A DNA stretch of 64,000 nucleotides from Candidatus Dormibacteria bacterium. GTDB lineage: Bacteria > Chloroflexota > Dormibacteria > Aeolococcales > Aeolococcaceae. The stretch is taken from positions 1,430 to 65,429 of the forward strand of contig JBOHUE010000157.1 of NCBI GenBank assembly GCA_050734185.1, in the 5' to 3' direction. Below the pieces are notes generated by a model. It saw only the letters and a program-made list of their open reading frames with translations. It was not told the DNA's origin and ran no database searches. Positions 11,739-58,653 of the stretch are shown here, in pieces (the stretch's first letter is position 1; each line of letters starts with the position of its first letter). The translations under genes were made by a program, and so were the position numbers.

Positions 11739-11762
11739 GGCGGGCCAAGTGTACCAGGCAGG

Positions 11763-38859: not shown

Positions 38860-39617
38860 ATCGGCTGGCGCTTCTGCAGGAACGCGCTGATGCCCTCGGC
38901 CGCGTCCTCGGTGCCGAACAGCTCGGCGAACTCGCGCTGCTCCAGTGCGAGCGCATCGGCGATGGGCAGATGCAGGCCGTCGTTCATGACGCGCTTGATC
39001 GCGGCCAGCGCGCGCGGCGCACGCGATCCCAGAAGCTCGGCCCAGCGCGCCGCGGCCTCGGTCAGGCCGCCGTCCTCGACCACCTCGGCCACGAGGCCGA
39101 GCTGCAGCGCCGAGTCGGCGTCGATGGGATCTCCGGTGAGCAGGAGCTCGCTGGCCCGCGCCCGCCCGATCAGGCGCGGCAGCCGCTGGGTGCCGCCCCA
39201 GCCGGGCATGATCCCGAGTTTGATCTCGGGCTGACCGAAGCGCGCGCTGCGCGTGGCGATGCGAACGTCGCAGGCGAGGCTGAGCTCGCAGCCGCCGCCG
39301 AACGCGACCCCGTTGACCGCGGCGATGATCGGCAGCCGGGAGCGCTCCAGGCGCAGGGTCAGGTCGACGGCGCCCCCGAGGCTGTCGTCGCCGGAGCCGA
39401 ACTCGGTGATGTCCGCCCCGGCGGAGAAGAACTTCGGGCCGGCACCGGTGATCACCAGCGCGCGGCAGGTGTCGTCCGCCTCGGCGCGCTCCAGCCCCTC
39501 AGCCAGGCCACCGACCACGGCGCTGCTGATCGCGTTGGCCGGGGGATGGTCGATGGTGAGCGTGCTCGTTCCACCCTCCCGCTCCTCACGCACCACGTCG
39601 TGCAGCACTTGGGCCAT
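38844..39617 (-). CDS. enoyl-CoA hydratase/isomerase (crotonase family)
   Basis: Oxyanion-hole motifs FSAGADI and AVNGVAFGGGCELSLACD. Confidence 0.9.
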   Translation of the reverse strand: MAQVLHDVVREEREGGTSTLTIDHPPANAISSAVVGGLAEGLERAEADDTCRALVITGAGPKFFSAGADITEFGSGDDSLGGAVDLTLRLERSRLPIIAAVNGVAFGGGCELSLACDVRIATRSARFGQPEIKLGIMPGWGGTQRLPRLIGRARASELLLTGDPIDADSALQLGLVAEVVEDGGLTEAAARWAELLGSRAPRALAAIKRVMNDGLHLPIADALALEQREFAELFGTEDAAEGISAFLQKRQPMWKGR

Positions 39618-40422
39618 GCGTCAGCCTCCTACGATCCTCGCGTCCGGGCCACGCGGTCGGTCATACCGCAAACGATCGTCCCTGCGTCAGCGCCATCGGG
39701 CCTGGCCCTGAGCTTGTGGCCCGTGCGGACTCGGCGTTAGTGGGCTCGAAGCGTGGTATCGGGAGGGACCATCGCAAGCTTGCGATCTGGGGATCGACTG
39801 AGCGAGTGGAGGATGAGCACGGCCGTACCGCCGCTGGGCCGTCCTGACGGCGCCGGCAAAGCTGCTGTCGTCGATGTCTGGGAGAAACGCACCAGGTTGT
39901 TCAATCCGCTAAACGGACGCCGCTGAAAAGGCCCAGGAGGCTCGGAACGAGGACGAGTCCATGTCACAGACCTTGGCTCGGCGGGCCCTGTCCGCTCGCG
40001 CCGGACAAGCGGTCAGCATCCGCGATGACACGGCACTGGGTGGAACCATCACGTAGTCGTGGGTGGGCCTATCGGCTGGCGCTCGACATTGCTGCGTGAG
40101 CTGGCGGAGCTCTACTCCGGCCTCGACCGTAAATCCGCACCGCCTCCCGCTATAGGAAGAATTCGCTTCTTTTCCATTAGTCGACCCTCCGAGGCGAGAA
40201 TCCATAGCGGGGCGGTCGCAGGGAGACCAGACTCCCTCCACTGGGGGCTGTTTGCGCCGCGCAACAGTGGCCCTGGCAAGCCGGCCCGCCAACCAGGCCA
40301 TCCACACCCAGGCGGGCGCCCAGGACCTGCGCGACCACAAAAGAAGCGTTGCTACACGAACGGGTGTTCGCTTATCCTAGCGGTGCCTAGCATCCAGCTT
40401 TGGAGACGTCACTTTTCTTGCC

Positions 40423-41997
40423 ATGACCCCGCTTCCGCCTAACTACTCGCCAGAACTAATCTTCGGAGTAATCGGACCTGCTGGCGCGGACCTGGGTGGA
40501 GTCAGCACAGCTCTTGAGAATGAGTTGCAGCGATACCGATACAAGGCGAAGATCCTGCTGGTAAGTGACCTTTTTAGGTCGCTTCCTGGCTTTGATCACC
40601 TGGGTGGAATCACTCGACCACGAGGCCTGAACGACTATGAGGTCCTGATGTCGGCGGGCGATGCCATAAGACGTCGAGCGAACCGGAAAGACGCCGCAAT
40701 TCTCATGGCCCTAACTAGCATCATCGATTCGCACGGCGATTGGACGAAGGAGCCGCGAGACACTGCCTGGATTCTGAACTCAATCAAAACTCCTCAGGAA
40801 GCGGACCTACTCAATGTCGTATACGGTGGACGCTGCTGGCTGTTATCAGTGTTTACGAAGCGAGAGAGCCGTATTCAGCAAATAGCCGACGAACTCGCGA
40901 GGCAGCGCGGAGGCACCGTCGGGAGAGTGGAGACTCAAGAAGCGGCCGACCTTGTGGAACGCGACGAGGGCGGTGTCACCATCGACGAATTCGGTCAGAA
41001 CGTCGGGGAAGCCTTCCCGCTCGGCGACTACTTCATAGACGTCGACAGAGACGACTTACAGGCACAGTTGCAAAGGTTTCTTCGCCTTGTCTTTGCTGAC
41101 CCATTTATGACGCCACAGCGCGATGAACAACTCATGTTTGTCGCGTACGGAGCTGCAATGCGTTCGGCATCGCTTTCCAGGCAGGTGGGGGCGGCGATCT
41201 CGGTCGAAGACGGCGCCATCGTCGCCATTGGGGCAAACGAAGTACCTAAGGCCGGAGGTGGTCAATATTGGGCTGAAGACTCCAATGCGAAGGCGACTGA
41301 TGATGGCAGGCAATTTCGACAGGCAGAGGATCTGAGCGAGACAACGAAGGACGCAATGGTCCGCGAGCTGCTGGCCTCAATTGAAGAACTACTCAAGGAT
41401 CCGGTTGATTCAGTTTTCGCGTCGCTTGATCGCAAGAAGCTTCGGGTGTTTGATCTCCTCGAGTTCTATCGTGAGATGCATGCGGAGATGGCCGCGGTCA
41501 TCGACGCGGCTCGCCGAGGGGTGTCAATTCGCGAGGGCACGTTAGCCACTACAACCTTCCCCTGCCACGACTGCGCTAAGCACATTATCGGGGCGGGCAT
41601 TAGACGCGTGCTCTTCATACAGCCATACGTGAAGAGCCGAGCGGCTGAACTCCATCGCGACGCACTAGTTATAGGTCATGAGCGCCCGATAGACGTTATA
41701 TTTCAGGGCAACCCCGTGACCTTCGAGACGTACCGCGGGATAGCCCCCAAACGCTACATCGAAGTCTTTCGAATGCCGGCCCGAAAGGTGGCTGGGACTC
41801 AGGTCACCTGGCGCGAAGGCGTTGCCGAGCCACGCACTGGGTTGCTGGGATCGAAGCTAACGCAGTTTGAGGTTGTAGAGGCAGAGCGTGCTGGACAGTG
41901 GTCAGGAGTTGTGGTGCGCGAGCAAGTTTTGGGAAAGAGACTACCCACAATAATCAAGGCCTTAGAGGAGGCTATCAATGCAGAACGGACCACATGA
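40423..41997 (+). CDS. AvcD/DCD-like anti-phage deoxycytidylate/dCTP deaminase (N-terminal CMP-kinase-like domain with degenerate P-loop + C-terminal zinc deaminase)
   Basis: C-terminal CDA/dCMP-deaminase zinc motifs HAE (aa 353-355, nt about 41479) and PCHDC (aa 380-384) preceded by VGAAISVEDGAIVAIGANEV. N-terminus IFGVIGPAGADLGGVSTAL resembles the cytidylate-kinase P-loop IxGPAGxGKST but lacks the Lys. Lower GC than flanks. Confidence 0.65.
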   Translation: MTPLPPNYSPELIFGVIGPAGADLGGVSTALENELQRYRYKAKILLVSDLFRSLPGFDHLGGITRPRGLNDYEVLMSAGDAIRRRANRKDAAILMALTSIIDSHGDWTKEPRDTAWILNSIKTPQEADLLNVVYGGRCWLLSVFTKRESRIQQIADELARQRGGTVGRVETQEAADLVERDEGGVTIDEFGQNVGEAFPLGDYFIDVDRDDLQAQLQRFLRLVFADPFMTPQRDEQLMFVAYGAAMRSASLSRQVGAAISVEDGAIVAIGANEVPKAGGGQYWAEDSNAKATDDGRQFRQAEDLSETTKDAMVRELLASIEELLKDPVDSVFASLDRKKLRVFDLLEFYREMHAEMAAVIDAARRGVSIREGTLATTTFPCHDCAKHIIGAGIRRVLFIQPYVKSRAAELHRDALVIGHERPIDVIFQGNPVTFETYRGIAPKRYIEVFRMPARKVAGTQVTWREGVAEPRTGLLGSKLTQFEVVEAERAGQWSGVVVREQVLGKRLPTIIKALEEAINAERTT

Positions 41998-42286
41998 GAC
42001 TCTGTCGACCCCGGACGCGGGTGGCGAAGCGGTAACTCGAGTAGGAACGCGAGCGCAACAGGCCAGCGAATCGTGGCCCGATTGGTTGAAACGTGCGGTT
42101 GAGTCACACGAGAAAGCATTCGAGAGTGAGAAGAAGCGCAATGGCGACGGAGATAGCTCGGGAATGGCTTAAATGTTGCCCGTTTGCTTCCCTTACATAG
42201 AGAGACCGCCCCATCGGAGCGCCTTCGTCCGGTTACGCGGCGCGGATCGCTGCTGAGCCGCTAGGCGTGCACCGGGAGAGAGAAGA

Positions 42287-43729
42287 ATGCGATTTAGCGA
42301 GTACTTCGGCGTCGCTGCCGCCGGCGTGGAGTGGTACGACCCAGTACTCACTGAGGACACTCCACTATATGTGGACCCGTTTCTTGTCTACGAAGATGCT
42401 GATCCTTTTTGGGCCAGCTCACATGACATCGTTGTCGAGTTCTTTGCGACCGCGCTGGGGCTGGTCCGCCGTGCGCCCGATAGGCGCCAGTCCGTGCATT
42501 GGCGCAAGGCGGAAAGACTTCTCACGTTCCCGGAACCCAAGGAGTTCGCGCTCGGCCTCGCTATGGGGACACCGGTTGGGTCAGGCACGGGAAGGGAATT
42601 CGCGCATGTCATGGCAGGGGCGTTGGGCGTCGTCGCCGGAAGCGGCATCAGTCAGGTCGAGTTTGTAGAGCTGTTCACGCTCTTTGCGCAGGGGCTGGGC
42701 CCCGATCGGATCAGCGATATCCTCTGTAACATCCTCAAGGCGCAGTTCATCGGCTACACACAGTCGATTGCGAAAGAGTTGGGGATTCAGTTATCGCCGA
42801 TACCGACCCGACACGTCAGGTGGAGCGCTGCGAGCACGCGGTGGGAGGACGGACTGTGTCTTCTGCCGCTAAGCCCGGTCACCAACGCAGGTATCCTCTT
42901 AACGCCGCATCGCTTCCTCAAGAACATCCCAACCGTAACGGCTCTGGGCTTCTGGAATTGGGCTGAGACGAGTGCCAGCCAAATTCTCCGCGACGACCTC
43001 AACTACGACCTCGCCGAGCATCTAAGCCGAAGCGAGCGGGAGAGGCGCGCCCGCGAGCTTGCGCATCTACGGCCGCCCCTGGCGCTTAGCTATCTGCAGC
43101 ACGTGGCGGAGGATGTCGAGCACGCTCCATACAATGTTGAAGACGATCCCGACCTACTAGTTGGTTGGCACGAGGCCGGTCGGCTCGCATTCGATCCTGG
43201 CTTGGCGCCAGATGGAGATCCACCGGAGGCTGACTTCTGCATTTGGGTAGGTGATCTGCTGGATCGCTTTCGGCATGCCGTAGAGGAAACGGATTTGTGG
43301 CGCGTGCTATGGAATGACGCTTTGACGAAGCCTCGAGCTGAGAAGATTGTCCAGGCGGTTGCAGGAAGTGTTCTGGCTCCCTACTGCGAAGCCGCTGATG
43401 TTGACCTATCGCGTGAGGCGAATATCGGTCGCGGCGCGGTCGATTTCAAGTTCGCTCGAGGCTGGAAGAAGCGCGCTCTCACGGAAGCTAAGTTGATATC
43501 AAGCAGTCATTTCGACAAGGGAGCCGGAAAGCAACTACCTCAGTATCTGAAAAGTGAACGCATCGAGTGCGGGTACTATTTGTGTGTTGGATTCTTCAAC
43601 GGCGATTTCGAAGGCGATCGCCTATCCAGAGTTACTGAAACGTGTCGGGTGTTATCCGAGCAAATGGGACGTCCGATAGCTCCAGTCATCGTTGATGCTA
43701 GACCCAAGGAATCCGCCTCAAAGTTGTAG
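42287..43729 (+). CDS. hypothetical protein, possible C-terminal PD-(D/E)xK nuclease fold
   Basis: 480 aa, no recognised family; C-terminal GAVDFKF...ALTEAKLIS fits a D...ExK nuclease core; island codon usage. Confidence 0.5.
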   Translation: MRFSEYFGVAAAGVEWYDPVLTEDTPLYVDPFLVYEDADPFWASSHDIVVEFFATALGLVRRAPDRRQSVHWRKAERLLTFPEPKEFALGLAMGTPVGSGTGREFAHVMAGALGVVAGSGISQVEFVELFTLFAQGLGPDRISDILCNILKAQFIGYTQSIAKELGIQLSPIPTRHVRWSAASTRWEDGLCLLPLSPVTNAGILLTPHRFLKNIPTVTALGFWNWAETSASQILRDDLNYDLAEHLSRSERERRARELAHLRPPLALSYLQHVAEDVEHAPYNVEDDPDLLVGWHEAGRLAFDPGLAPDGDPPEADFCIWVGDLLDRFRHAVEETDLWRVLWNDALTKPRAEKIVQAVAGSVLAPYCEAADVDLSREANIGRGAVDFKFARGWKKRALTEAKLISSSHFDKGAGKQLPQYLKSERIECGYYLCVGFFNGDFEGDRLSRVTETCRVLSEQMGRPIAPVIVDARPKESASKL

Positions 43730-43758
43730 TCCTCCACACGGAGCTCTCCGTATCCATA

Positions 43759-43802
43759 CCGCGTTGGCCATTACATCGCACCGCGTTGGCCATTACATCG
43801 CA
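43759..43802. repeat. perfect 22-bp tandem direct repeat x2 (CCGCGTTGGCCATTACATCGCA)
   Basis: Seen directly, 30 bp after the stop of 42287..43729. Confidence 0.8.
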
Positions 43803-43980
43803 GCGGGATGCTGCGATAACGGGCTCGCAAGTTTGATGGGGCTTGGCTACTTTGGCGTTGGTCGAGGCCACAAGTGCCACCACGGCGTCGGTTAGCTGAG
43901 CTCCTCGGTTGTCCACGGGCCTGCTCGTCGAGACGCTCGACGCACTCTCTGGGCTCGGCTAGATTCAGCTAGAGGAGGCT

Positions 43981-44010
43981 GTGTGATAAGGCCGCGGCGC
44001 CTCATCACAC
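43981..44010. promoter_or_regulatory. 30-bp near-perfect palindrome GTGTGATAAGG-CCGCGGCG-CCTCATCACAC (candidate operator or terminator)
   Basis: 11-bp arms with 1 mismatch around an 8-bp CG loop, about 100 bp upstream of the first HNH gene. Confidence 0.4.
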
Positions 44011-44107
44011 CCATGTTCGTCGATTGGCCCCTCTAACCCATCACGAATGAGGCGCCGGGAATCCGTCGTAGGCGTTCGGGAGGGGCCCGTTTGCCGTCGC
44101 GTCATCC

Positions 44108-45082
44108 ATGACGCTTGACCAGCTTCGGTGGCATAGTTGCGCATACTTCGGGATGGCCGCTCAATTCGCTGACGAGCCGGTGCGCTCCGCCGCCTTTGCA
44201 TTCCTCGCCGACCAGGCGCGGATCCGCGATCAGCCGTGGCCGCCTGTACTTCCACGGTCCCTCCTGCAAGCTGGCTTTGAGTTTGGCGGTCAGCGGGTTC
44301 CGCTCGTCGGCCCGCAGGGGATCTTCAAGCCGGCGGCGCTCCCCGGAACGATCCCACTCAGCATCACCACGGCTCCACCGGTGCTGCATCACGATGCCCC
44401 ATACGACGACGAGTTCGGGTACGGCCACCTCGTCTATCGCTATCGCGGCATCGATCCAAGCCATCACGAGAACGTGGGGCTGCGATCCGCGATCAAAACG
44501 CAGACGCCGCTGATCTACTTCCACGGCATCGTTCCCGGTTCCTACCTCGCGACGTGGCCGGTGTATATCGTGGGAGATCGTCCCGAGCAGTTGGCGTTTA
44601 CGGTTGCTTTCGAGCCGGGCGCTGTCGAACGGCTTCCTGAGGCGCAGCTCATGGAAGAAGACGCGAGGAGGGCATATGCAGAGCGCCTCGTCTTGCAGCG
44701 CCTCCACCAGGCTGGGTTTCGTGAGCGAGTACTGACTGCGTATCGGCGGTGCTGCGCACTGTGTCGGTTACGACACGCACCGTTGCTCGACGCGGCCCAC
44801 ATCATTGCGGACGGCCGGCCACGCGGAGAGCCGGTAGTGAGCAACGGCCTGGCGCTTTGCAAACTCCATCACGCGGCATTCGACGCGAACATCATCGGGA
44901 TCCGGCCGGATCGCGTTGTCGAAGTCAGGCAGGAGGTCCTTAGTGAGACGGATGGCCCGATGCTCGTCCACGGCTTGCAAGAGGTCCACGGGTCGCGGAT
45001 CTGGACGCCGCGTTCACCGGAGCTGCAGCCAACCGCGGCCCGACTTGAGGAACGCTATGAAGAGTTCCAGAAGGCCGGGTGA
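44108..45082 (+). CDS. HNH endonuclease (PF13391-like) with N-terminal reader-like domain; type IV restriction candidate
   Basis: HNH motif CALCRLRHAPLLDAAHIIA...NGLALCKLHHAAFD; N-terminal about 190 aa of unknown or PUA-like fold. Confidence 0.7.
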   Translation: MTLDQLRWHSCAYFGMAAQFADEPVRSAAFAFLADQARIRDQPWPPVLPRSLLQAGFEFGGQRVPLVGPQGIFKPAALPGTIPLSITTAPPVLHHDAPYDDEFGYGHLVYRYRGIDPSHHENVGLRSAIKTQTPLIYFHGIVPGSYLATWPVYIVGDRPEQLAFTVAFEPGAVERLPEAQLMEEDARRAYAERLVLQRLHQAGFRERVLTAYRRCCALCRLRHAPLLDAAHIIADGRPRGEPVVSNGLALCKLHHAAFDANIIGIRPDRVVEVRQEVLSETDGPMLVHGLQEVHGSRIWTPRSPELQPTAARLEERYEEFQKAG

Positions 45083-46020
45083 CAATGGGGCGCGTGTTCG
45101 TCGCCGTCACCGACTACGACTGGTATCGGAAGCTGCGGCAGATCCCCGATGTCGACGAGGTGAACTTCTGGCAGCCCAGCGGTGGTCGGAGATTCGGCGC
45201 AATCGGGGTTGGCGAGATGTTCCTCTTCAAGCTGCACGCGCCCTACAACGTCATCATTGGTGGTGGTTTCTTCGCACGCCACACAACGCTTCCGCTCCAT
45301 TTGGCCTGGGAATTCTTTGGGCTCAAGAATGGCGCAAGCAGCGAGGAGGAAATGGTCGTCAGGGTGGCACGCTACGTTGATAGCCTCAAGGGCGTGTCGG
45401 CGCTGCAGCGGAGCAAACACCCGATCGGCTGCGTGCTCCTCGAGCAACCGTTTTTCTTCCCAGAGACCGAATGGATTCCCCAACCCGCAGATTGGGCCCG
45501 GAACATCGTGCAGGGCCGCGGTTACGACCTCGCCGAGGCGACGGGCCAGAGCCTGCTAACAAGCGTCAGCGAGCGCTTGGCAGGTGAGTCCGTTGTGCTG
45601 CTTGATGAGGCGACCGGCCGGTACGGAGCACCAACTCTGGTGCGCCACCGCCTCGGACAGGGATCGTTCCGCGCTGCCGTGACTGACGCCTACCACCGTC
45701 AATGTGCCGTCACCGGAGACCGGGTCCTCTATGTGCTCGACGCGGCTCACATCCGGCCGTTCGCTCGGGGTGGTGAGCACAGCGTGAACAACGGGTTGCT
45801 TCTTCGGAGCGACCTTCACACGTTGTTCGATCGCGGGTATCTGGCGGTCGACCCACAACATAGGGTCCAGGTGAGTCGCCGGCTGCGCGAGGAGTTCGAC
45901 AACGGGAGAGAGTACTACGCACTGGAAGGCCGTCGCCTGCTCCTGCCGGCGGAGCGCGTCGACCTCCCCGATTCCGGTTTGCTGGCTTGGCATCGGCACG
46001 AGGTCTTCGTCGCTGCGTGA
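45079..46020 (+). CDS. EVE/PUA-like-domain HNH endonuclease (PF13391-like); type IV restriction candidate
   Basis: ATGA overlap with the upstream HNH gene; N-terminal EVE-like FWQPSGG...GEMFLFKLHAPYNVIIGGGFFA; HNH motif CAVTG...LDAAHIRPF...NNGLLLRSDLHTLFDRGYLAV. Confidence 0.7.
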   Translation: MTMGRVFVAVTDYDWYRKLRQIPDVDEVNFWQPSGGRRFGAIGVGEMFLFKLHAPYNVIIGGGFFARHTTLPLHLAWEFFGLKNGASSEEEMVVRVARYVDSLKGVSALQRSKHPIGCVLLEQPFFFPETEWIPQPADWARNIVQGRGYDLAEATGQSLLTSVSERLAGESVVLLDEATGRYGAPTLVRHRLGQGSFRAAVTDAYHRQCAVTGDRVLYVLDAAHIRPFARGGEHSVNNGLLLRSDLHTLFDRGYLAVDPQHRVQVSRRLREEFDNGREYYALEGRRLLLPAERVDLPDSGLLAWHRHEVFVAA

Positions 46021-46102
46021 CGTGCACACCTTCCGCGATGTGGAGGCACTTGGGAGGATTTTCCAGGCTCGTCCCGACTTTAGTGGAGTCACATTCTTGG
46101 AC

Positions 46103-46411
46103 TCACGCTGCCGTCGTAGGCTGATGCTGAGCCTCGAACTCGACTGGCGTCAGCAAAACCAGTGACATATCGTGGCGCTGGCGGTTGTGGAAGATCTCCA
46201 GGTACTCGAAGATCACGCTTGCGAGCTCAACCGGCGTCGACCAACCTGGCCAGGTCGCTTGAGCTGGTGCAACTCCGGCCGTGCGGACCCAGCAAGTGCG
46301 GGGTGTTACGCGTTCTCCAGCGCCGGGAGTGTTTCCACCACCACCTCCGTCGACCGTTGCGTCAGCTTGGCCACTGACCCGCCGCTGAAGTAGCGGCGAC
46401 GAACGGCACAT
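46103..46411 (-). pseudogene. IS3-family transposase (integrase core) C-terminal fragment
   Basis: IFEYLEIFHNRQRHDMSLVLLTPVEFEA matches the conserved C-terminal tail of IS3 OrfB (IFEYIEvFYNRxRRHSxLGYxSPxEFE); no upstream catalytic region present. Confidence 0.5.
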
Positions 46412-46775
46412 TCATCGTGCTGCTCCTTGAGCACGGCACGGACCAAGCGCAGCAACGAGTGGCGGTTGGAAACATGCCGACCACGTCGCAGCGTCGGCTG
46501 ACCTCCTAGTTAAGCCGCTCCGGGAGTTCGTGGACCAGATCACGCGGCGGTGCCCGACCGGGAACCCGTAATACGCGAGCACGTCGTCCTGGGCTGCCCC
46601 GGGGCACGTCACGAGCTTGGCGAAACGCTTCTCGAAGAGCCTGCACACGCGACCAACGGCGGCTTTTGGCTGTGACGCGATCGGGTGGGCAAAGAGGGTG
46701 CGAATCGTGGCGGCCGACATCCGGTGCGCAGCCTTCCGAACGGTGGCCAACGCGTTTCTCATGACGTGCACGGCC
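46412..46775 (-). pseudogene. IS256/Mutator-family transposase internal fragment
   Basis: VHVMRNALATV...LAYYGFPVGHRRVIWSTNSRSGLTRR matches the IS256 conserved block (CxVHxxRN...FPxxHWxxxRTTNxIE); truncated at both ends. Confidence 0.5.
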
Positions 46776-46857
46776 GCTCGGCCACCTGGCCCCGACGAAC
46801 ACCTACCGAGAGACGACCTGTTGACCCTGAACGAGCACTCTGGAAACATCCCGTCCG

Positions 46858-47452
46858 AATGGACATTGACGAAGTTCAACGATCGAGAGCGATCGCACGA
46901 CTTGGCAAGCTTGGCGGGTTCGCTCCCCCGGCTGGCGAAGCCCTCGTCGATGCCGCCATCGCCGGCGCTATCGACCATGCATTTGAGTTGATTAATGGCT
47001 CGGGCGCTGTTCCGACGAGCATGACAACTAGTAAGGCTGACCAGCTGCGTTTCATCTGCGAGCGCGCGGGGCGCCTCTTGTCCCAACGGGAGGTGGAAAT
47101 TCTGTTCCGCGTGACAGCGACAGCAGCACGAACGATCCTGACGACAATGCTCGCCACGTACGAGGAGGCTCTGCGTGAGAAGTTCGTGGCGCGCATGCGT
47201 AGCGATGCGCTGGTAGAACCCAGCGGCAGCGACGATGCTGGACTAAGCTGGACGCTGCGATTTACTGAGTCGGGCACTCTCGATACCGCCTGGAGTGAAG
47301 TCGTTCGACTTGGCATCGCAAGTCTTGGTGACATCAGCTCGTCACGGCGAACACTGACGATTCCTCGTAGCGCCACCATCCAGGGTGAGTCTATTGACGT
47401 TCTCGCCGCGCTTGGGCTGGAGCAACCAGCGACGCGTCCATCAAGGCGGTGA
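46858..47452 (+). CDS. hypothetical protein (island cargo)
   Basis: 198-aa ORF from ATG at 46858 with island-like (lower GC) codon usage; no recognised domain; partly overlaps the upstream part of the IS256-fragment ORF, which is non-homologous. Confidence 0.35.
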
Positions 47453-47793
47453 ATTCTCTCGCTGACCAGATCGGGCAGGCCGGTAGTCTGCTAGGTTTGC
47501 TGTTGGCGCTCGACACGCTATTTACCGCTGTCCAAGCACAGGCGCTCGCTGACGAACGGAACCACGAGGGTGGGGCAAGGCCTAAGCGCGTGAGAACCAT
47601 TCGTACTATTGCTATCGGTCTTGCAGTCGTTACGGTTTCAGCACTCGTCGCGCTATTTCCCCTCGTTCGAGATGTCTTGGCTACGATTGGCACCGGCAAT
47701 TGGGAGCCCGTGCTAGGCGTTTTCGATCTCACATGGCTCCTCCTCGCCGCACTCGCTATCTGGCAAGGGTGGATTGCATTGAGAAGCGGGTAG
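47449..47793 (+). CDS. small two-TM membrane protein
   Basis: GTG start overlapping the upstream TGA; two hydrophobic helices (LLGLLLALDTLFTAV, IAIGLAVVTVSALVALFPLV). Confidence 0.35.
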   Translation: MNSLADQIGQAGSLLGLLLALDTLFTAVQAQALADERNHEGGARPKRVRTIRTIAIGLAVVTVSALVALFPLVRDVLATIGTGNWEPVLGVFDLTWLLLAALAIWQGWIALRSG

Positions 47794-48314
47794 GCGTGGA
47801 TCCCGCCAGAGCCGATCGATGCCACTCCACAGCCCGAGACGCACGCCGCTCGGAGAGGTTGAGTTCTCCCGCGCGGACCACGGCTCACGCCGGCGGGTCG
47901 GGCTCACAAGTTGGCCCGTGCTACCTCGCGCAGTACCTCAAGGTCGAGCGCCTGGTCGCGACAGCTTGCGCAACCAATCGGCGTCGTCCGCCTTCATGCC
48001 GCCGTATTAGTTGCGCCAAGTGAAAAGTCTGCTCGCTGATCTCCAGCGTCGTCGTCACACCCGCAAATGACACGAGCGTCGGCCAGCAGCCGGTCACGCC
48101 TCCCTGAGTCTGCGCACGATCTGTTGTGTTGTGTGCTTGCGCCCTTTACAAGTGGTTTCTGCTTGCCCTTGTGGGCCTACGAGAACTCTCGTATCAGGTG
48201 GACCGACGTCAGGGGTCGGGCCACAGGGTCCAATGCATGCAAGTGACTGGGCTATCGTAGCGTGAGGGTGTCGCACCCCGAACGTTGCGTGTGTGAGCGC
48301 GCAACGCCGCGCGA

Positions 48315-48715
48315 ATGGATGATTGGCTCAGGAGAGTCGGAATGACTGGTCTGGAATGGCAGCGAGAGCCGGGCGTCTATTTCATTTACGACGTAGGGAA
48401 CGATCGCGTGAAGATTGGATATGCGACGGATCCGTACGACCGCATGACGACGCTGAAGACCGGAAATTCACAACAGCTCTTGCTCCTTGCTGTTGCAGTG
48501 CGAGAACGAAACACGATGAGCGTGCTTACCACGCTCAGTTCGCTGGCGATCTGGTCGAGGGGTCGCGCGAGTGGTTCAAGCCCAGTGGGCGGCTGAAGGC
48601 GCTCATCGAAGCCGTACAGCACAATTACGGCAACCATGGCGCCTATCCAGCCCCGTCCGGCGGGTTGCTTCGCTATCGCGTGCGGGGCGGCCCCGACGGA
48701 AGGCAGCGTCGCTAA
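48315..48715 (+). pseudogene. T5orf172 / GIY-YIG-like domain protein, frameshifted
   Basis: N-half in the frame of 48315 (GVYFIYDVGNDRVKIGYATDPYDRMTTLKTGNSQQLLLLAV). C-half (ERAYHAQFAGDLVEGSREWFKPSGRLKALIEAV) continues in the frame of track ORF 48323..48715. Shift lies at about 48490-48510. Confidence 0.55.
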
Positions 48716-49332
48716 GCATGGCCGGGATGGTTTCGAATCACCTCAGGCGCGTTTGGTACCGCGAGGCCGGGAAAATGTCCTCTGAACCTCCCGGGCAATA
48801 CTGGGACTCCTTCACGCCAGGAGGAGGATCTCGCGAGCGGACCGCATGCTTGCCGGTCCGCTCGTCCTTGAGAACCCCGCCCGGTATCGGGCAGCGCTCA
48901 TTGCGCTCCTCACACCCAACCAGGTCGAACCGGATGCCACCCTTGCACAGGCCGAGTCATCACAGCTGTATGCGCAGACGGCCGCGCTGACCGCGGCGGC
49001 AACTAGGACGCCCGCGTACGACACCTGCGTGCCCCTTGCAAACCGCGTCGAATCTGCCGCGCCCGAACAGATGGCTGCGGTCGAAGGCAGCTTCGCTCCA
49101 GCGGCGGCGTACGGCACCGAGACGCTAGACATGTTCTGGAGGGCCGGTGGTAGAAGCTCAAGTCGACCCAGTTGTTGGACACGCGGTGGGCGCTAGCGCC
49201 TCTGGAGTCGCGCGGTAGCGGTTGGCCAAGGTGCGTGGGCTGGTCGCTTCGTGTTACCGACGAGCATGCCAAGGTACGCTGCTTCACGGCCACCACGATC
49301 CAGATGGGAGTCGCGAGGCGGCTTGACCATCG

Positions 49333-52300
49333 CTACCCGGCGTTGAGATTACCGTGAGTCTGGCGACGGCCGAACGTCGCGTGATCTCGCTTGCTGGCCG
49401 CCCGCCAGCCAGACACTCGCATCTTCCCCACCGGCGCTTGACGAAGCTGTGGGTCGCGCACCGGATTGAAGACTGCCGTTAATTCGGGAATCCCGCCGTC
49501 GGTGAGGTGCTCAACGACGTAGACCCAGTAGTCGGCACCGAGCTTGGGATCTAGCGCAACCTCCCACTCACTCGTCTCCAGGATGAAAGCGTCCGCTGCG
49601 AGTCCTCCGGACGCTTTCAGTTCGATGTAGCGGCCATCGCTCGCCACGAAATCGGCTCCCACCAAGGGCCCCTGTCGGTGCACGACGAAGCCGCCGCGCG
49701 TTGCCTCGAACATCTCGACGTATGGACGAGCGGCATCCTCGACAGCAGTGTTCGGAGGGATTGGAGTAGCGTCATCGCGGGCTTGACTCGGTCGGTCGGA
49801 CTCCGGGCGCGGCTTCCGGCGACGCGCAGTCCTTGGGAGCTCCCGCACCGCCTGAGACCCCAGAGCGTCATGCTCGGTGCTCTCGATCGACAACAACTCG
49901 AAGGAGGAAGGGTCGGCAAACGTACGCTCCACATGTGATGGTCGCCTAGTTTCCGTGGACGTCCGTGAGGAGCCTGGGGCTGGCCGTGTTGCCTGTCGGA
50001 TCGCATCAATAGCAGCCTCAACATCGTCTGCATCGTCATGATCGCCCTCCGCTCCACCGAAGCCCGCTTCGACTGAGAGCACGCCTACGCTGGTCTCGTA
50101 GCGCTCGATCCGCTTAGCGAAAGCCTCGGGCGATCGGAAAGCTTCTCCAAGCAGCGCCGCCAGCGCGTTCGTCGCGGCGAGTTGTCGCCGCTGAACGAGG
50201 GAACCGAGTATTTCTGCGGCTGTGTGACCGAATACGTCAGCTGATTCCACCCCGACAAGTACTCCGTCTCGAAGCAGCACCCGCGGCTCGGTGTGCAGTC
50301 GAATGTTTCCCTGGTCGGGGAGGCGAAGGACCAATCGGCCTTCAATCTTCAGTGCAGTTGCCGGCTGAAGACCCGCCGCCCCTGCGGCGAGATTGGCAAT
50401 CACGGCGCGATCCCAGCCCCCTTCGGACCGAAGCAACTCTGGCCATGCGCGGACGGCAGCCAGCCATCGACCTCTGAGATCCGCGCTGAGGTCTCCTCCG
50501 GCCACGACCAGCCACTGTTCCTCAAGGACCTCTCCCGGTGTCAACTCCCTGACGGCGAGCCAACGGGCTGCGGTTCCCACGACGGAGGCGTCGTACGTGC
50601 CGGGCAACCACCACGCAAGGTGAGTCTGGAGGGCGGACCGAATCTCCGGCCGGGCAGTCCACCAAGCCTGGTCGGCATCAAGCCAGCCGCGGTCTGTCAG
50701 TGCCGGCACGCCTGCGGGTCCGGCGCTCCCATGCGACACGACAGACTCTAGTCTCACGACCAATTCCCCATAGAAGTGGCGTGCGATCTCATCAACTGGG
50801 CTAGCCGCCATTTCGTAGCGAATGATGTCCGCCATCATCTGCGGATCGAGGTCCGCTCGCACGCCCAACGCGTCCCAAAGTGTGGCGGATCTCGGATAAC
50901 GTCCGGCGAGCTGCCCAACGAACGGGCCGGCGACAGCAGACACGTCCGCTCGCACCGTACGAACCGGTGACCACCATTCGTTGCCGATAAAATCACCCGG
51001 GGGCGGGGCGAAGATGAGGCCGACGCGGCCATTCCCGTGGAACTTAGGCCGGATAAGCAGACGAACCAGATCGGCACGCGCGGAGTTCGGCAGTGCTGTA
51101 AGTTCGCCAGCTATGAGCTCGTAACAAGCCCCGGCTGCGCGCCGACGCTGATCGACTGTGAGTTCTGGAGCTGTATCGCGGAGCCGCTGCAAGGTTGAGA
51201 TAAGGCGGTGCGGCGCGGGTCGTTCGGCGATGCCGATGTCATCGAGCATCGCGTCTGGCTGACTAGGCCAACCTAGGACCGATGCGGCTTCGCTCGCCAA
51301 GGCGAGCTTCGTTGCAGGACTACTGCGAACGAGATCCTTGGGCTTCTGCAAGGATCGGTCCAGCGCGCCGACCCAAGCGATCGACTCGAGCAGTCCCACC
51401 CACGACGACGCTACCTGAGGCGGGTCAGGGATCCAGTTGTAATAGAAATGCGCCGGCGTGGTCTTGCTGGTCGGCGCGATTCGGCCCCAATCCGCCTGGA
51501 GTACAGTCCACAGGGCTCGAGCTCGTCGCCCGCGTTGACGCGTCGACAGTGATGGCCACCGATCTACCAACCACGTGAGGTCGTCGGAAACCCAATCGTC
51601 GATGACACCGGTGGGTCGGGTCATCGCGCTTGAAGGCCAGACAATCCACGGCATCGTCCCGCGTGCGATCCTCGTCACGCGGCGTCCGTCACCGACGGCT
51701 TCGCCGATTCGCGGGCTGATGTAGGGACCAACCAAGCCCCCCAGGAATCGCAAGAACTCGGGAGGGGACATCTGCGCTCGAGCCCCCCGCTGGATACCTC
51801 GACCTCTCGGCACCGGGATCGCGTGAGTGTGGATCTCGTCGACAATCGCTCGGTCAGGCTTTCCGTTTGTCACGGCTTCCATGCCGTCCTGGCTGAGCAT
51901 GGCCGAGCTCAAATATGTTCTTGTGAGCGGTCGAGCGACAAGTCGTCGCGATCGCCCTTGACCAACGACGGCAGCGACGCGGAGACTGTCGCCCAACTGG
52001 CGCGCGATCATGGCTTCGTCTTGAGCGCGATGTGCCCGGCGATAGTCGTTCACGAAGCCTCGCCATCGATGCCTGATGAACTCGACCATCCGAAAGAGCT
52101 GTTCCCGCTGCGATTCATCGATGTGATCAAGCTTCGCTAAGGCGGCCATCCGGGGAACGACCAGGTCTGTGACGACGTGGTATGGGCCAGCCTGAAGCGC
52201 TACTCGGAAGGGCTCCTGCGACAACATATCGCGGACCCGCACGCGCATATCGCCTTGGTCCCGTCCGCGGCGCCGAGCCGCAAGCACACCCGGGGCTGGA

Positions 52301-54051
52301 TCGAGGAACGGATCGACAAGGTGGATCTCAGACTCATTGAAGTACCGCCGCAAGTCGGTGAGAGTTGCGGAGCGTGAGTACCCAAGCAGGTAGCCAGTGA
52401 GCGCAATACGTGGAGAAGGCCGGATCCGACCGCCATGCTCGATTGGTATGCATGCCGTCGATGCGATGGACGCGCGCTCCTCTTGAGTCGCCGTGGTCGC
52501 AACTAGGTCCAGCGCTCGAAGCCACCACCGTCCGTCGCGACGACCGAAACGGAGGTCATCGAGCCTGAGCAGAGCGAGCAGGTCTGGGAGCGCCACTGCG
52601 CGACCTCCCAGGGTGCCAACGACCGAATGCATCCTGCGCTCGTCACTTGACCCAGTGGCTGGTGCAGTTGCGGGAGCGACATACGAGACAGCCGTGCCTG
52701 TCGCCAAATGCAGGTCCGTTTCTCGGATGACTTCACGGAACGCCTCGTCTGGAGCCCACACAGCGGCAGAGGGTACCCGCCAACCCGCGACCGTGCGAAC
52801 GAATCGACGGTCGCGAAGCTGGCTCATCGCTACGTCAAACGCACGGTGCTGGAGGGAGCCGGGAGCAACCTCTGACGCGAGAGGGATGAGTGGCCACGGG
52901 GGTTGACCGGAACGGGATTCAGCTTCTATCGCCTTGGCGATGACATTGCCGATCTCAGTCAACAGCCAGCGATTCCAGTCATTCTCACGGAGTCGTTCGC
53001 GTCCAGGTGTTGGGTCGAAATCGGCTTGCACAAGCCAACGCAGTTCCGATGTGACATCTAGGGGCAGAAAACAGTGCAGCTTCGTGGGGCCGACCGAGCG
53101 ATCAATGGGCCGTGCGAGAACGATTGTCGACGTCTCGCCCGCCTGAACTTCCCGGCCTTGGCGTGCCAATCCGCGCGGGACCGCAGACGTCGAGTACCGA
53201 TATCGTCGCCAAGCCTGTTGCTCACAGCCAGGCCACGATCCGCCGATGCGACACTCGTCCCAGCCGCGCGTCCGGTTTGAAACGCCTGAGCGCCGATAGA
53301 ACTGGCCGCGGCCGCGTCCGGTGACTCGATCAATAATGACGATAGATTCCAGGCTGTCGAGCGTCAACAACAGGTGCAGGAATTCAGGCCTGGTTAAGTC
53401 CTCGATGATCGACGCCAATCGACCACGCTCCGAGGGTCGTACATGCAGCGTGAAATGAGCGCCACGAGGCCGGCGCGGCGGGAGCGGAAGCGGATCGGGA
53501 TAGATCTTGTCCTCAATACGAAAGGCGTACGAGCCTGACTCAATCTGCGGCGAATCAGTCAGCTTAAACACGGACTTGAAACCGATCCCGAAGAATCCGA
53601 TCTTGTTCTTCTTGGGACTATGCCCGGCCGAGCAGATTGCCCATACGTCTGGGGCCGAGAATGCCTGACCATCGTTGTGTACGCGGACCTCATCAGGCTC
53701 AAATAGAAAGAGTATTCGCCGCGCTCCTGCGTCTTCGGCGTTCTGGATCAATTCCAGCGCCCAATGGATGTCGCGCCCGTACAGCTGCTCGGACGCGATC
53801 GACAGGAGCGGACCAAGGTCGGGACTGCCGCGAAATTCTTCTTTTAGCGACCGAACTGCGCCGACGAACGTCTCATTCCAGTTCGGGTCGTCCTCCGGCA
53901 ACGATTCGACAGGGAGCCGCCGAGCCAGGCGCTCGACGGCATTGGCGGCGGCAGCCCGAAGTGAATCCACACCGGGAGAGGGTTCATGGACACCGCGGAT
54001 ACTGGCGCTCTTGGAGCGATTCGGGTCGATCAGCGTGGCGGTGGCCTCCAA
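49333..54051 (-). CDS. giant (1572 aa) sacsin/MORC-like GHKL ATPase with C-terminal DUF3883 / PD-(D/E)xK-like nuclease domain; defense-island protein candidate
   Basis: N-terminal HATPase_c_3-type N-box ELIQNAEDAGA and G-boxes KIGFFGIGFKS; C-terminal GADFVASDGRYIELKASGG...FILETSEWEVA...YWVYVV fits the DUF3883 GYDIxS...IEVKxT...lSxNE pattern. Confidence 0.75.
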   Translation of the reverse strand: MEATATLIDPNRSKSASIRGVHEPSPGVDSLRAAAANAVERLARRLPVESLPEDDPNWNETFVGAVRSLKEEFRGSPDLGPLLSIASEQLYGRDIHWALELIQNAEDAGARRILFLFEPDEVRVHNDGQAFSAPDVWAICSAGHSPKKNKIGFFGIGFKSVFKLTDSPQIESGSYAFRIEDKIYPDPLPLPPRRPRGAHFTLHVRPSERGRLASIIEDLTRPEFLHLLLTLDSLESIVIIDRVTGRGRGQFYRRSGVSNRTRGWDECRIGGSWPGCEQQAWRRYRYSTSAVPRGLARQGREVQAGETSTIVLARPIDRSVGPTKLHCFLPLDVTSELRWLVQADFDPTPGRERLRENDWNRWLLTEIGNVIAKAIEAESRSGQPPWPLIPLASEVAPGSLQHRAFDVAMSQLRDRRFVRTVAGWRVPSAAVWAPDEAFREVIRETDLHLATGTAVSYVAPATAPATGSSDERRMHSVVGTLGGRAVALPDLLALLRLDDLRFGRRDGRWWLRALDLVATTATQEERASIASTACIPIEHGGRIRPSPRIALTGYLLGYSRSATLTDLRRYFNESEIHLVDPFLDPAPGVLAARRRGRDQGDMRVRVRDMLSQEPFRVALQAGPYHVVTDLVVPRMAALAKLDHIDESQREQLFRMVEFIRHRWRGFVNDYRRAHRAQDEAMIARQLGDSLRVAAVVGQGRSRRLVARPLTRTYLSSAMLSQDGMEAVTNGKPDRAIVDEIHTHAIPVPRGRGIQRGARAQMSPPEFLRFLGGLVGPYISPRIGEAVGDGRRVTRIARGTMPWIVWPSSAMTRPTGVIDDWVSDDLTWLVDRWPSLSTRQRGRRARALWTVLQADWGRIAPTSKTTPAHFYYNWIPDPPQVASSWVGLLESIAWVGALDRSLQKPKDLVRSSPATKLALASEAASVLGWPSQPDAMLDDIGIAERPAPHRLISTLQRLRDTAPELTVDQRRRAAGACYELIAGELTALPNSARADLVRLLIRPKFHGNGRVGLIFAPPPGDFIGNEWWSPVRTVRADVSAVAGPFVGQLAGRYPRSATLWDALGVRADLDPQMMADIIRYEMAASPVDEIARHFYGELVVRLESVVSHGSAGPAGVPALTDRGWLDADQAWWTARPEIRSALQTHLAWWLPGTYDASVVGTAARWLAVRELTPGEVLEEQWLVVAGGDLSADLRGRWLAAVRAWPELLRSEGGWDRAVIANLAAGAAGLQPATALKIEGRLVLRLPDQGNIRLHTEPRVLLRDGVLVGVESADVFGHTAAEILGSLVQRRQLAATNALAALLGEAFRSPEAFAKRIERYETSVGVLSVEAGFGGAEGDHDDADDVEAAIDAIRQATRPAPGSSRTSTETRRPSHVERTFADPSSFELLSIESTEHDALGSQAVRELPRTARRRKPRPESDRPSQARDDATPIPPNTAVEDAARPYVEMFEATRGGFVVHRQGPLVGADFVASDGRYIELKASGGLAADAFILETSEWEVALDPKLGADYWVYVVEHLTDGGIPELTAVFNPVRDPQLRQAPVGKMRVSGWRAASKRDHATFGRRQTHGNLNAG

Positions 54052-54908
54052 GCGATATGCGCGAGTGCTAGGGCCTTTCGATGAGAGATGTCAAGCGATC
54101 ACACAACAAGCCCTCGCCCTCCGCATCCGCCACATTCGTCGCCAAGTTCAGGAGCGTTATACCGTCCGCGGCTCGGTCGGTGCGCGCGGGGCAGCCCACG
54201 GCTCTAAGCGCGCACCAAATAGTGCACAGAGTTGAGCACGGAAAGTCCACAGCTCTGATTGACGGGGACCATAGCCTTCCCCCGGTGCCCCGCTGAGCCG
54301 TGCACATCGCGCGACCAGTAGCGGTCCGTTGTTGGTCGACGTACTTGCTCATCGCGGTTGCCGCGGGTCGAGCTCCCGCGCGGAGAAAGCTGACGCCGAC
54401 TTGAGGATCTCCTTGGCTCGGGTGCAAATCGCTGTTCTCTCGCTCGAACTGTGCGATGCGGAGGTCTCTTCCGTCGTGGTCCCGGTGCGCTTCCCATCAT
54501 CCATCTCGGCTTCGTTAACCCAGGTGCTCGACGACTCAGCGTCAGGGCCCCATTAATTGGCGACGCGGCTGACACTCCCGAAGCGCTCACGGGACTGCTC
54601 ATATGCCTGGTGGGACCATCCGGATCCCCCCTCTCTGAGCTTAGTGATGCGTCCGCGCGCTCCGAAGTATTGGAGCTCACCTAACCTTCGGGGCCAAGGC
54701 ATCGCGAATCTCCGTATCGCGCCAGTTCCAGAGCTTGGTGGCCGACGCGCACCTAGCTCCGATGCCAGCAATCCTTATGCCGCGATTTGGCCGCACCCTC
54801 TACGTGACGGGCCAGCGACCGCTGAAGACGCCCCAGGCTTCCGGCGTCCCGCGAGCATAGACTCGCATCCTGGGCGGAGCGGGACGTCCGAAGACGAGGA
54901 GTGTCGCG

Positions 54909-55778
54909 ATGGCAGCTGTTGCACCGGTTGAGGGCATCGACGCAATGTCGTACGTCACGGTCGGGGTCGAGAACAGCACCCCGATTCGGATCCACTACGA
55001 GGATCACGGCAGCGGTCAGCCGATCGTCCTGATCCACGGTTATCCGCTCAATGGGGAGTCCTGGGAGAAGCAGGAGCGTGCGCTGCTGCCCGCCGGCTAC
55101 CGCGTCATCACGTACGACCGCCGCGGCTTCGGCGCGTCGAGTCACCCCACCGTGGGCTACGACTACGACACGTTCACCGCCGACCTCGACGCGCTGCTCG
55201 ACCACCTGCATCTCGACAATGTCGTCCTCTGCGGGTTTTCCATGGGCACCGGTGAGGTGACGCGCTACCTCGGCACCCACGGATCAGCGCGCGTGCGCAA
55301 AGCCGTGCTCATGGGCGCGATCCCGCCCTTCCTGCTGAAGACTGCGGACAACCCAGAGGGCGTCGACGCTTCGGTCTTCGACGGCATCAAGGCACTGGTC
55401 CTCAAGGACCGCTACCTGTGGTTCAAGAACTTCTTCGACAACTTCTACAACACGGACGTGCTGATGCCCGAGCGCATCACCGAACAGGCATGGCAGGCAA
55501 GCTTCAACCTCGCGTGCACCGCGTCGCCGTACGCCAGCTACGCGTGCGTCGACACATGGCTCACCGACTTCCGCAGCGACCTGCCGAAGATCGACGTGCC
55601 CACGCTCGTGGTGCACGGCACTGCCGACCGGATCCTTCCATTCGAGGCGACGGCGAAACGCCTGCCGGCGCTGATCAGGGGCGCGCGTCTGGTCGCGGTC
55701 GACGGCGGCCCGCACAACATCGCATGGACACACCCCGATGAGGTCAACGACGCGCTGTTGACGTTCCTCGCGGAGTAG
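54909..55778 (+). CDS. alpha/beta hydrolase (non-haem haloperoxidase/esterase-like)
   Basis: HGYPLNG and GFSMGTG (GxSxG nucleophile elbow); C-terminal His/Asp region VVHGTADRILP. Start may be the internal ATG at 54945. Confidence 0.9.
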   Translation: MAAVAPVEGIDAMSYVTVGVENSTPIRIHYEDHGSGQPIVLIHGYPLNGESWEKQERALLPAGYRVITYDRRGFGASSHPTVGYDYDTFTADLDALLDHLHLDNVVLCGFSMGTGEVTRYLGTHGSARVRKAVLMGAIPPFLLKTADNPEGVDASVFDGIKALVLKDRYLWFKNFFDNFYNTDVLMPERITEQAWQASFNLACTASPYASYACVDTWLTDFRSDLPKIDVPTLVVHGTADRILPFEATAKRLPALIRGARLVAVDGGPHNIAWTHPDEVNDALLTFLAE

Positions 55779-55878
55779 CAGGTTAACGCCCGGCGAAGGT
55801 GCCGGAGGGCGCGAGTGGCTGTGCTAGCGTCGCTGCTCGCTGCCCCTGCAGCGGTGGACGGTAATGAGGAGCGTTGTC

Positions 55879-56682: not shown

Positions 56683-56795
56683 CGACGGAGCTGCCGCCGC
56701 TCCCCGACGCGGTCGACGCTGCGACGCTGCAGTCGCTGGCCGAGCCCGACCTCGAGGGCGTCGAACGCGACCTGCGCTCCGCCGAACGAGCCACG

Positions 56796-58648: not shown

Positions 58649-58653
58649 TTCGC

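Follow-up and report, generated by a model that had tools for sequence, protein, structure and literature searches.

The defense islands and hotspots described in Escherichia coli, Pseudomonas and Acinetobacter (PMC10121019, PMC11723918, PMC12629846) offer the closest comparison for a segment of low GC content that we analyzed in the chromosome of a Candidatus Dormibacteria bacterium. The segment lies within a stretch of 64,000 nucleotides (64 kb, hereafter the window; assembly GCA_050734185.1, contig JBOHUE010000157.1) taken from a metagenome-assembled genome (MAG). Like those islands, it clusters unrelated defense genes in DNA of deviant composition, contains debris of insertion sequences (ISs), lacks a dedicated integrase, and occupies a site between conserved flanks whose content varies, with a toxin-antitoxin pair at the same place in a relative. 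It differs from them by its host, which belongs to the uncultured phylum Dormibacterota. An earlier note, made from the letters of the window alone, had proposed a horizontally acquired anti-phage island. This proposal is supported by tests of composition and by the absence of the segment from the syntenic position in relatives. We consider it very probable that the region is such an island, placed in the divergent promoter region that separates an enoyl-CoA hydratase gene from a conserved open reading frame (ORF), o152, probably assembled stepwise, and predicted to provide layered, nucleic-acid-directed immunity. This reading is based on composition, absence from relatives, domain content, catalytic motifs, and two confident structure models.

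Dormibacterota are abundant and uncultured bacteria of soil and permafrost. To our knowledge, almost nothing is known of their phages and immunity, and our literature search found no paper on defense islands in this phylum. Some of the systems that we discuss below have been described elsewhere. Anti-phage dCTP deaminases deplete dCTP, according to the summary of Tal et al. 2022 given in PMC13276650, and the mutations that let T7 escape fall in genes inhibiting host transcription (bioRxiv 10.1101/2022.08.27.505566). Fusions of PUA-superfamily and HNH domains are modification-dependent restriction enzymes (PMC6765204, PMC7897488). Tiamat is enriched in Actinobacteria and its mechanism is unknown (PMC10482375).

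A foreign-looking segment between two core genes

The composition of the window changes abruptly in the region of interest. In 1-kb windows, GC content falls from 0.66-0.74 to 0.565-0.643 across 40-55 kb. The 30 windows of 500 bp inside 40.0-55.0 kb have a mean of 0.614 (sd 0.028), and the 94 outside have a mean of 0.685 (sd 0.024). The difference is significant (Mann-Whitney p=1.6e-15), and none of the inside windows reaches 0.66. The correlation of tetranucleotide frequencies with the core profile is 0.87-0.92 inside, against 0.97-0.99 outside, and GC content at third codon positions (GC3) is 0.58-0.76 in the island genes, against 0.87-0.92 in the flanking ones. The GC drop that the earlier note had placed at about 39.7-54.9 kb is therefore confirmed by quantitative analysis, which found a significant difference in place of a uniform composition. 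The segment is not homogeneous either: GC is 0.573 at 40423-43729, about 0.625 at 43730-54908, and 0.666 at 54909-56689. In composition, the island is pieced together from three or more blocks, with dead IS3 and IS256 fragments between them. The segment, its flanks, and the two genes at its right end are the following:

39677..56688, no strand: whole inserted segment, about 17.0 kb (tblastn synteny in 30 loci and blastn to the contig L082)
40001..54908, no strand: compositionally deviant core (GC 0.57-0.63 against 0.685 in the core genome)
38844..39617, minus strand: left flank, enoyl-CoA hydratase, core gene (Pfam ECH_1, E=4e-63; syntenic in 30 relatives)
56688..57254, plus strand: right flank, conserved Dormibacterota ORF o152, core gene (intact 195-aa version in L082)
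54909..55778, plus strand: alpha/beta hydrolase inside the synteny-defined insert (Pfam Abhydrolase_1; not in the relatives' loci)
55864..56682, plus strand: two-domain glyoxalase/VOC protein inside the insert (Pfam Glyoxalase)

Relatives were identified by a genome scan with the Fe-S protein encoded at 36664-38859, which returned Dormibacterota MAGs at 65-80% amino acid identity and one partial match at 89%. We took their loci as 22-kb stretches, in which the hydratase and o152 were located by tblastn, and found both in 30 of them. The two genes are direct divergent neighbors in 28 of these 30 loci, with matched ends 173-340 bp apart; the true spacer is only about 100 bp, because the tblastn match of o152 begins at its truncated GTG start. 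No island gene, nor the hydrolase or the glyoxalase, was found by tblastn in the 22-kb loci. The adjacency of the flanking genes in 28 of the 30 relatives identifies the island as an insertion.

A closer relative was found in a metagenome contig of 1.8 kb (L082; 78-87% identity, with o152 at 87% and the hydratase at 80%), which also lacks the island genes. It was the only contig returned by a metagenome scan for a near-identical strain with an empty site, and the scan gave no strain-level relative. This contig can be aligned by blastn only to positions 39512-39672 and 56690-57577 of the window, so that the latter has about 17.0 kb of additional DNA, from ~39,677 to ~56,688, with breakpoints good to about +/-10 bp given the distance of the relatives. 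The region is thus not conserved, being absent from the same position in 30 Dormibacterota genomes and one metagenome contig. These limits revise the flanks proposed earlier. A right edge at ~54.9 kb holds for composition, but by synteny the insert reaches ~56,688. The hydrolase, then regarded as a flanking core gene, lies within the insert, even though its composition is host-like (GC3 of 0.87, and 0.89 for the glyoxalase); an exact-protein look-up of the hydrolase returned the same sample only. The left flank, described as fadB-type, actually consists of a 4Fe-4S dicluster and CCG-domain protein (heterodisulfide-reductase/GlpC-like, 36664-38859) that precedes the enoyl-CoA hydratase (38844-39617).

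The insertion has affected o152. The 152-aa product corresponds to positions 56796-57254, and the insert lies between this gene and the divergently transcribed hydratase. It displaced the ancestral start codon and promoter region of o152: the ancestral GTG is now ACG (window 56685-56796), the old N-terminal 37 codons (ELPPLPDAV...) remain in frame and conserved, and no ATG, GTG or TTG is available to o152 upstream of 56796. The right junction is found 5 nt past the stop codon of the glyoxalase gene. The product of o152 is either shortened at its N-terminus, with transcription now coming from the glyoxalase gene, or translated from a non-canonical start codon.

Could the low-GC block be an artefact of assembly or binning, i.e., a contig chimeric with the DNA of another organism? 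The source is a MAG and the block is unlike the rest of the contig in composition. Yet a separate Logan assembly (SRR27067723) is 100% identical from the first HNH endonuclease gene of the island (HNH1, see below) through TmtA, the hydrolase, the glyoxalase and o152, and its 20.5-kb contig should span the left junction too (by coordinate arithmetic only). Host-type genes are found on both sides in conserved order and orientation, and the right junction falls inside the still-recognizable coding sequence of o152. We thus regard such an artefact as exceedingly improbable.

Known and candidate defense genes of the island

A dCTP deaminase homolog, the Tiamat protein TmtA, and two type-IV-like HNH_2 endonucleases are encoded within 14 kb. 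The first two match models of experimentally established defense systems over nearly their full length. The main coding genes of the island are:

40423..41997, plus strand: anti-phage dCTP deaminase homolog, 524 aa (PADLOC dCTPase model, E=1.9e-131)
42287..43729, plus strand: DUF8370/DUF8371 protein, 480 aa, with an N-terminal domain shared with PDC-M36A and a C-terminal PD-(D/E)xK domain
44153..45082, plus strand: HNH1, HNH_2 endonuclease, 309 aa from the likely start M16 (Pfam HNH_2, E=4.8e-9)
45085..46020, plus strand: HNH2, PUA-superfamily (ASCH/EVE-like) reader domain and HNH_2 endonuclease, 311 aa (Pfam HNH_2, E=1.4e-13)
46859..47452, plus strand: o197, conserved protein, first of a two-gene cassette (110 cluster representatives at E<=1e-3)
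47449..47793, plus strand: o114, small predicted membrane protein with hydrophobic segments, overlapping o197 by 4 bp
49333..54051, minus strand: TmtA of Tiamat, 1572 aa (PADLOC PDLC03968, E=5.5e-105 over 12-1474/1486)

All five proteins that the earlier note had read from the ORFs of this set, a deaminase, a PD-(D/E)xK-like protein, two HNH nucleases and a giant GHKL-nuclease, were recovered by these searches. The deaminase aligns over its full length with defense-specific models, including the NCBIfam anti-phage dCTP deaminase NF041025 (361.8 bits over 1-434/437, for an equivalog cut-off of 400 bits). It also matches Pfam dCMP_cyt_deam_1 and dCMP deaminases of the PDB, and its zinc motifs are intact (H353-A-E and P380-C-H-D-C). 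It thus resembles the described anti-phage enzymes in alignment, in its HAE and PCxxC motifs, and in its defense neighborhood. It differs from them in its score, which is just below that cut-off, and in its N-terminal domain, which has no Pfam match and carries a P-loop-like GPAGADLGG without the canonical GK[ST].

The DUF8370/DUF8371 protein ends in a D...(D/E)xK motif placed on a restriction-endonuclease-like alpha/beta core, with the residues D386...E400-x-K402...Q416xxxY420 all invariant in an alignment of 42 sequences. Motif and fold both identify it as PD-(D/E)xK-like. At its other end, the PADLOC PDC-M36A models match residues 2-219 only (model 7-218/457, E=2.9e-22), i.e., less than half of the 457 model positions, leaving the C-terminal PD-(D/E)xK domain uncovered, and no further M36 component turned up in the island ORFs. 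By these comparisons the protein shares a domain with PDC-M36A without belonging to that candidate system. A Foldseek search of the N-terminal DUF8370 domain against the PDB gave no significant match. The homologs, none of them above 59% identity, come mostly from Actinobacteria, and in other genomes they adjoin Wadjet, Lamassu, OLD nuclease, MazG/SLFN-helicase and AbiE genes.

Some of these homologs are followed by a conserved 313-aa protein (L085 7512-8453, L087 7467-8408), which has no Pfam or PADLOC match and is absent from the window; the two genes may form a two-gene version of the module. We rejected the idea that the 313-aa protein is the counterpart of HNH1 or HNH2, with which it shares no similarity. 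A two-gene system composed of the deaminase and the DUF8370/DUF8371 protein is also unsupported, none of four independent contexts containing a deaminase. In the 420-bp gap that separates the DUF8370/DUF8371 gene from HNH1, 29 nt past the stop codon of the former, we observed a perfect 22-nt tandem duplication (two copies of ACCGCGTTGGCCATTACATCGC, window 43758-43801).

The longest ORF of HNH2 overlaps the stop of HNH1 by 4 bp, and the start of HNH1 at M16 was inferred from its orthologs in two other contexts (L089 and L091). The two proteins are 33% identical over the catalytic half only. This half matches TagI and VcaM4I and carries the motifs DAAHI and NGL...H..FD. HNH2 has a PUA-superfamily reader domain at its N-terminus. 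Its domains, an N-terminal barrel followed by a C-terminal HNH_2, have the size and order seen in the PUA-superfamily-HNH enzymes, which include the EVE-HNH enzymes VcaM4I and TspA15I as well as SRA-HNH enzymes. HNH1 has the HNH_2 catalytic half of TagI, one of the SRA-HNH enzymes (TagI/ScoA3IV). TagI is its nearest solved relative, for the HNH part only (E=8e-4), and the PADLOC HNH and NCBIfam PT-DNA_restrict models likewise cover the C-terminal half only. Residues 1-160 of HNH1 had no match in Pfam, even at a relaxed threshold, or in two PDB profile searches, and hhalign gave this N-terminus a probability of 0.3% against that of HNH2 and of 2% against the SRA_ScoMcrA protein; SRA-like motifs noticed by eye are a lead only and not a result. 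As in PUA-HNH modification-dependent enzymes, no methyltransferase gene lies nearby, and no methyltransferase domain was found in any island ORF scanned. By domain content, the two HNH proteins have the architecture or the catalytic domain of type IV restriction enzymes.

The HNH1-HNH2 cassette recurs in three unrelated contexts, at identities of 89/87% (L089), 87/80% (L090) and 60/54% (L091), and several contigs are common to the lists of homologs of the two proteins. The idea of an obligate pair is weakened by the finding of each gene alone in other loci (L092, L098).

TmtA is a single large protein that matches the Tiamat profile from end to end. Its N-terminus is a sacsin-like GHKL ATPase (E100-x3-N-A-x-D, D127-G, G152-F-F-G-I-G-F) and its C-terminus a NOV_C/DUF3883 PD-(D/E)xK-like domain (D1467...E1477-L-K, with NOV_C at 1441-1518); further matches were found to Pfam SACS and NOV_C, NCBIfam P_loop_sacsin and sacsin in the PDB. 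The full-length match to PDLC03968, the intact ATPase motifs, the NOV_C domain, and the chromosomal location typical of Tiamat all fit this system. The protein departs from it in belonging to a diverged subfamily, for which the other six TmtA models match the ATPase region only. Our literature search found no dedicated study on the mechanism of TmtA/Tiamat, nor on PDC-M36. The description of Tiamat as a single-gene defense system reportedly goes back to Millman et al. 2022, and we know of no previous study of it in Dormibacterota.

The homologs of o197 are mostly full length (185-200 aa), and it had no match in Pfam, PADLOC, PHROGs or NCBIfam. A 45% identical homolog in another genome (L095) has the same overlapping arrangement with o114 and adjoins a GmrSD_N-HNH gene; a partial homolog of o114 was found in L096.

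These homologies suggest how the island genes might provide a layered immunity directed at nucleic acids. HNH1 and HNH2 would cut incoming DNA with modified bases, in a type IV modification-dependent restriction like that of VcaM4I and TagI, and the PUA/ASCH-like domain of HNH2 would read the modified base. The deaminase would be switched on when phages shut off host transcription, converting dCTP to deoxyuridine nucleotides and starving phage replication. TmtA would couple its GHKL ATPase to the C-terminal NOV_C domain, probably to sense and then cleave nucleic acid. The DUF8370/DUF8371 protein is a candidate single-gene nuclease defense that would cleave DNA. The cassette of o197 and the small membrane protein could be a fifth component. 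The T5orf172 gene described below is dead.

Alternatively, the region could be ancestral to Dormibacterota and repeatedly lost, or its genes could serve housekeeping nucleotide metabolism or DNA repair. Deaminases of the dCMP type, HNH nucleases and PD-(D/E)xK nucleases do have housekeeping roles too, and the hydrolase and the glyoxalase have host-like codon composition. This explanation is nonetheless highly improbable. None of the 31 relatives that we compared across the phylum has the region at this site, the GC3 of the island genes differs from that of the core (0.58-0.76 against 0.87-0.92), the best matches are to defense-specific models (the housekeeping ComEB equivalog gives the deaminase only 50.6 bits for a cut-off of 219), and the homologs sit in defense islands elsewhere.

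Remnants and gaps

The rest of the island consists of a pseudogene, IS fragments and intergenic DNA:

48315..48715, plus strand: T5orf172 (GIY-YIG-like) pseudogene with a frameshift near 48,500 (stitched frames; PHROG 8130)
46103..46243, minus strand: remnant of the 3' end of an IS3-family transposase, rve_2 (Pfam rve_2 21-54/56; tblastx to Cellulomonas IS3)
46369..46780, minus strand: IS256-family (Transposase_mut) fragment, C-terminal part only (Pfam Transposase_mut 252-341/379)
54314..54642, minus strand: 5' remnant of an IS3-family element, OrfA and frameshift region (blastn to IS3 transposase genes)

The T5orf172 gene listed in the earlier note does contain the domain, but as a frameshifted pseudogene and not as an intact ORF: matches to T5orf172 (31.1 bits) and MUG113 (33.4 bits) appear once the two frames are joined, and the single frames have no match to the Pfam family (PF10544). 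The IS debris it mentioned turned out to be IS3 and IS256 fragments. The IS256 fragment matches by blastn annotated IS256 transposases on actinobacterial plasmids. The 5' remnant of IS3 matches a region 160-300 nt from the 5' end of a Cellulomonas IS3 coding sequence, with tblastx matches in two frames. An Rfam ALIL pseudoknot at 54283-54391 on the minus strand is below threshold (E=0.036) and was kept only in support of this remnant. The Rfam scan of 39.0-57.5 kb gave only two matches, both sub-threshold, and no retron, group II intron or riboswitch; a scan for promoters and terminators showed no enrichment over shuffled sequences. As for the long noncoding gaps, one of them (46859-47793) holds the conserved o197-o114 cassette and so is not noncoding. 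One candidate in these gaps, an ORF at 39909-40340 on the minus strand, was set aside as probably non-coding, for it has a poor codon signal and only a weak match to DUF7351 (17 bits for a cut-off of 31).

Assembly of the island

How did these genes arrive? The segment is discrete and compositionally foreign, as expected if a classical integrative element, such as a prophage remnant, an integrative conjugative or mobilizable element (ICE/IME), or an integrase-borne island, had integrated site-specifically in one step. In addition, both the dCTP deaminase and the DUF8370/DUF8371 protein have PHROG families that cover their full length, which means that relatives occur in phage genomes, and some homologous HNH cassettes adjoin tyrosine integrases in other genomes. 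Yet three recombinase probes gave no tblastn match to an integrase or recombinase in the window, and Pfam found none among the island ORFs tested. The only tRNA of the window is at 23.8 kb, none being nearer to the island than 16 kb. At the borders, no convincing att-like repeat was found, whether direct or inverted; the best pair is 19 nt long, at 84% identity, and lies inside genes. The missing integrase and direct repeats, already remarked on in the earlier note, are thus confirmed. No phage structural or conjugation genes were found, and a single arrival fits poorly with at least three compositional blocks. We therefore consider an integrative element very unlikely.

The two IS3 pieces share a strand, and their order fits a single IS3 whose interior was replaced by a TmtA-containing segment of about 8 kb, which holds the IS256 fragment, o197 and o114, the T5orf172 pseudogene, and TmtA. 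This is suggestive of one disrupted element as the source of the remnants at 46103-46243 and 54314-54642. The whole block, or its part at 46-54.6 kb, might then have been delivered or rearranged by ISs as a structure akin to a composite transposon, the IS3 remnants being its scars. The IS256 fragment, which abuts the 3' end of IS3, agrees with this idea. But we found neither an intact transposase nor terminal inverted repeats, the short fragments have diverged (70-72% nucleotide and 32-41% amino acid identity), and the IS3 pieces could equally be two dead copies. IS delivery as the explanation of the block is rather unlikely; it is compatible with stepwise assembly as one of its mechanisms and does not replace it.

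A mosaic with dead ISs, lacking integrase, att repeats and a nearby tRNA, argues for stepwise assembly rather than one integration. The island was probably built in this way, by IS-mediated events and/or by recombination via the conserved flanks.

Variable occupancy of the site

Other relatives carry different genes between the hydratase and o152. At the same point, the contig L082 encodes a Phd/YefM-RelE/ParE toxin-antitoxin pair (187-766), and two other relatives have a PAS-GGDEF-EAL gene at this site (L023, 6892-9066; L062, 6821-9064). Of the 31 relatives compared, 28 have an empty site. The site is therefore a variable hotspot, a term that rests here on comparisons between species.

A motif, GGTCATACCGCAAA(C/T)G, is found at 39660-39676 of the window, 5' of the hydratase, and is conserved across the Dormibacterota relatives, mostly as GTCATACAGCAAATGG. 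Both the island and the toxin-antitoxin insertion of L082 start directly after it. The motif could serve as an operator or promoter element, or mark a point at which recombination is favored.

Weight and meaning of the evidence

Several observations count against a functional defense island acquired as we propose. About 3 kb of it has no assignable gene (39.7-40.4, 47.8-48.3, 48.7-49.3 and 54.05-54.9 kb). The deaminase falls slightly under its equivalog cut-off, a reader domain could not be assigned to HNH1 with Pfam, PDB profiles or hhalign, and the DUF8370/DUF8371 protein is an incomplete PDC-M36A that lacks here the 313-aa partner of some of its homologs. All functional assignments rest on homology. 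Finally, the closest available relatives are only 65-89% identical at the protein level, and the hydrolase and the glyoxalase may have arrived with the defense genes or before them.

A further reading is tentative, and we hold it as a possibility more doubtful than not: the island may contain at least one undescribed defense module, and the site may be a phylum-wide, integrase-independent hotspot. Three candidates would come into question. The o197-o114 cassette may be one, for its conserved overlap and its GmrSD-like neighbor in another genome. The stand-alone DUF8370/DUF8371 protein may be another, given its presence in many actinobacterial defense islands and in phages. HNH1-HNH2 may be a type IV cassette with two readers that covers two classes of DNA modification.

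Each identifiable component is a known family or a diverged relative of one, and their arrangement is that of a textbook defense island. The locus overturns no current view and opens no long-standing question. What is new is the host phylum, the definition of the insertion site, and three conserved cassettes without experimental characterization, which are cheap candidates for screens of defense systems. If our very probable reading of an acquired defense island is right, Dormibacterota would share with Actinobacteria a tool-kit of dNTP depletion, Tiamat and type IV restriction, kept in variable hotspots.

Neighboring features of the window

The genes around the Fe-S protein at 36664-38859, which encode the enoyl-CoA hydratase, an SCP2 protein and a 3-hydroxyacyl-CoA dehydrogenase, have an order that is conserved across the phylum. 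On the other side of the island, downstream of o152, the ORF at 57251-59626 encodes a cNMP-binding histidine kinase. In its longest form it runs about 320 bp into the next gene (59307-60965), and its start is probably later. A homolog is present in L082 (81% identity), but the 22-kb loci of the other relatives yielded none; its position marks a second variable spot. A lesser dip in GC content (0.63 at 11-12 kb, with an AT skew of +0.25) coincides with the ATPase of a Wzt-type polysaccharide-export ABC transporter, encoded at 9622-11865 (ABC_tran and Wzt_C).

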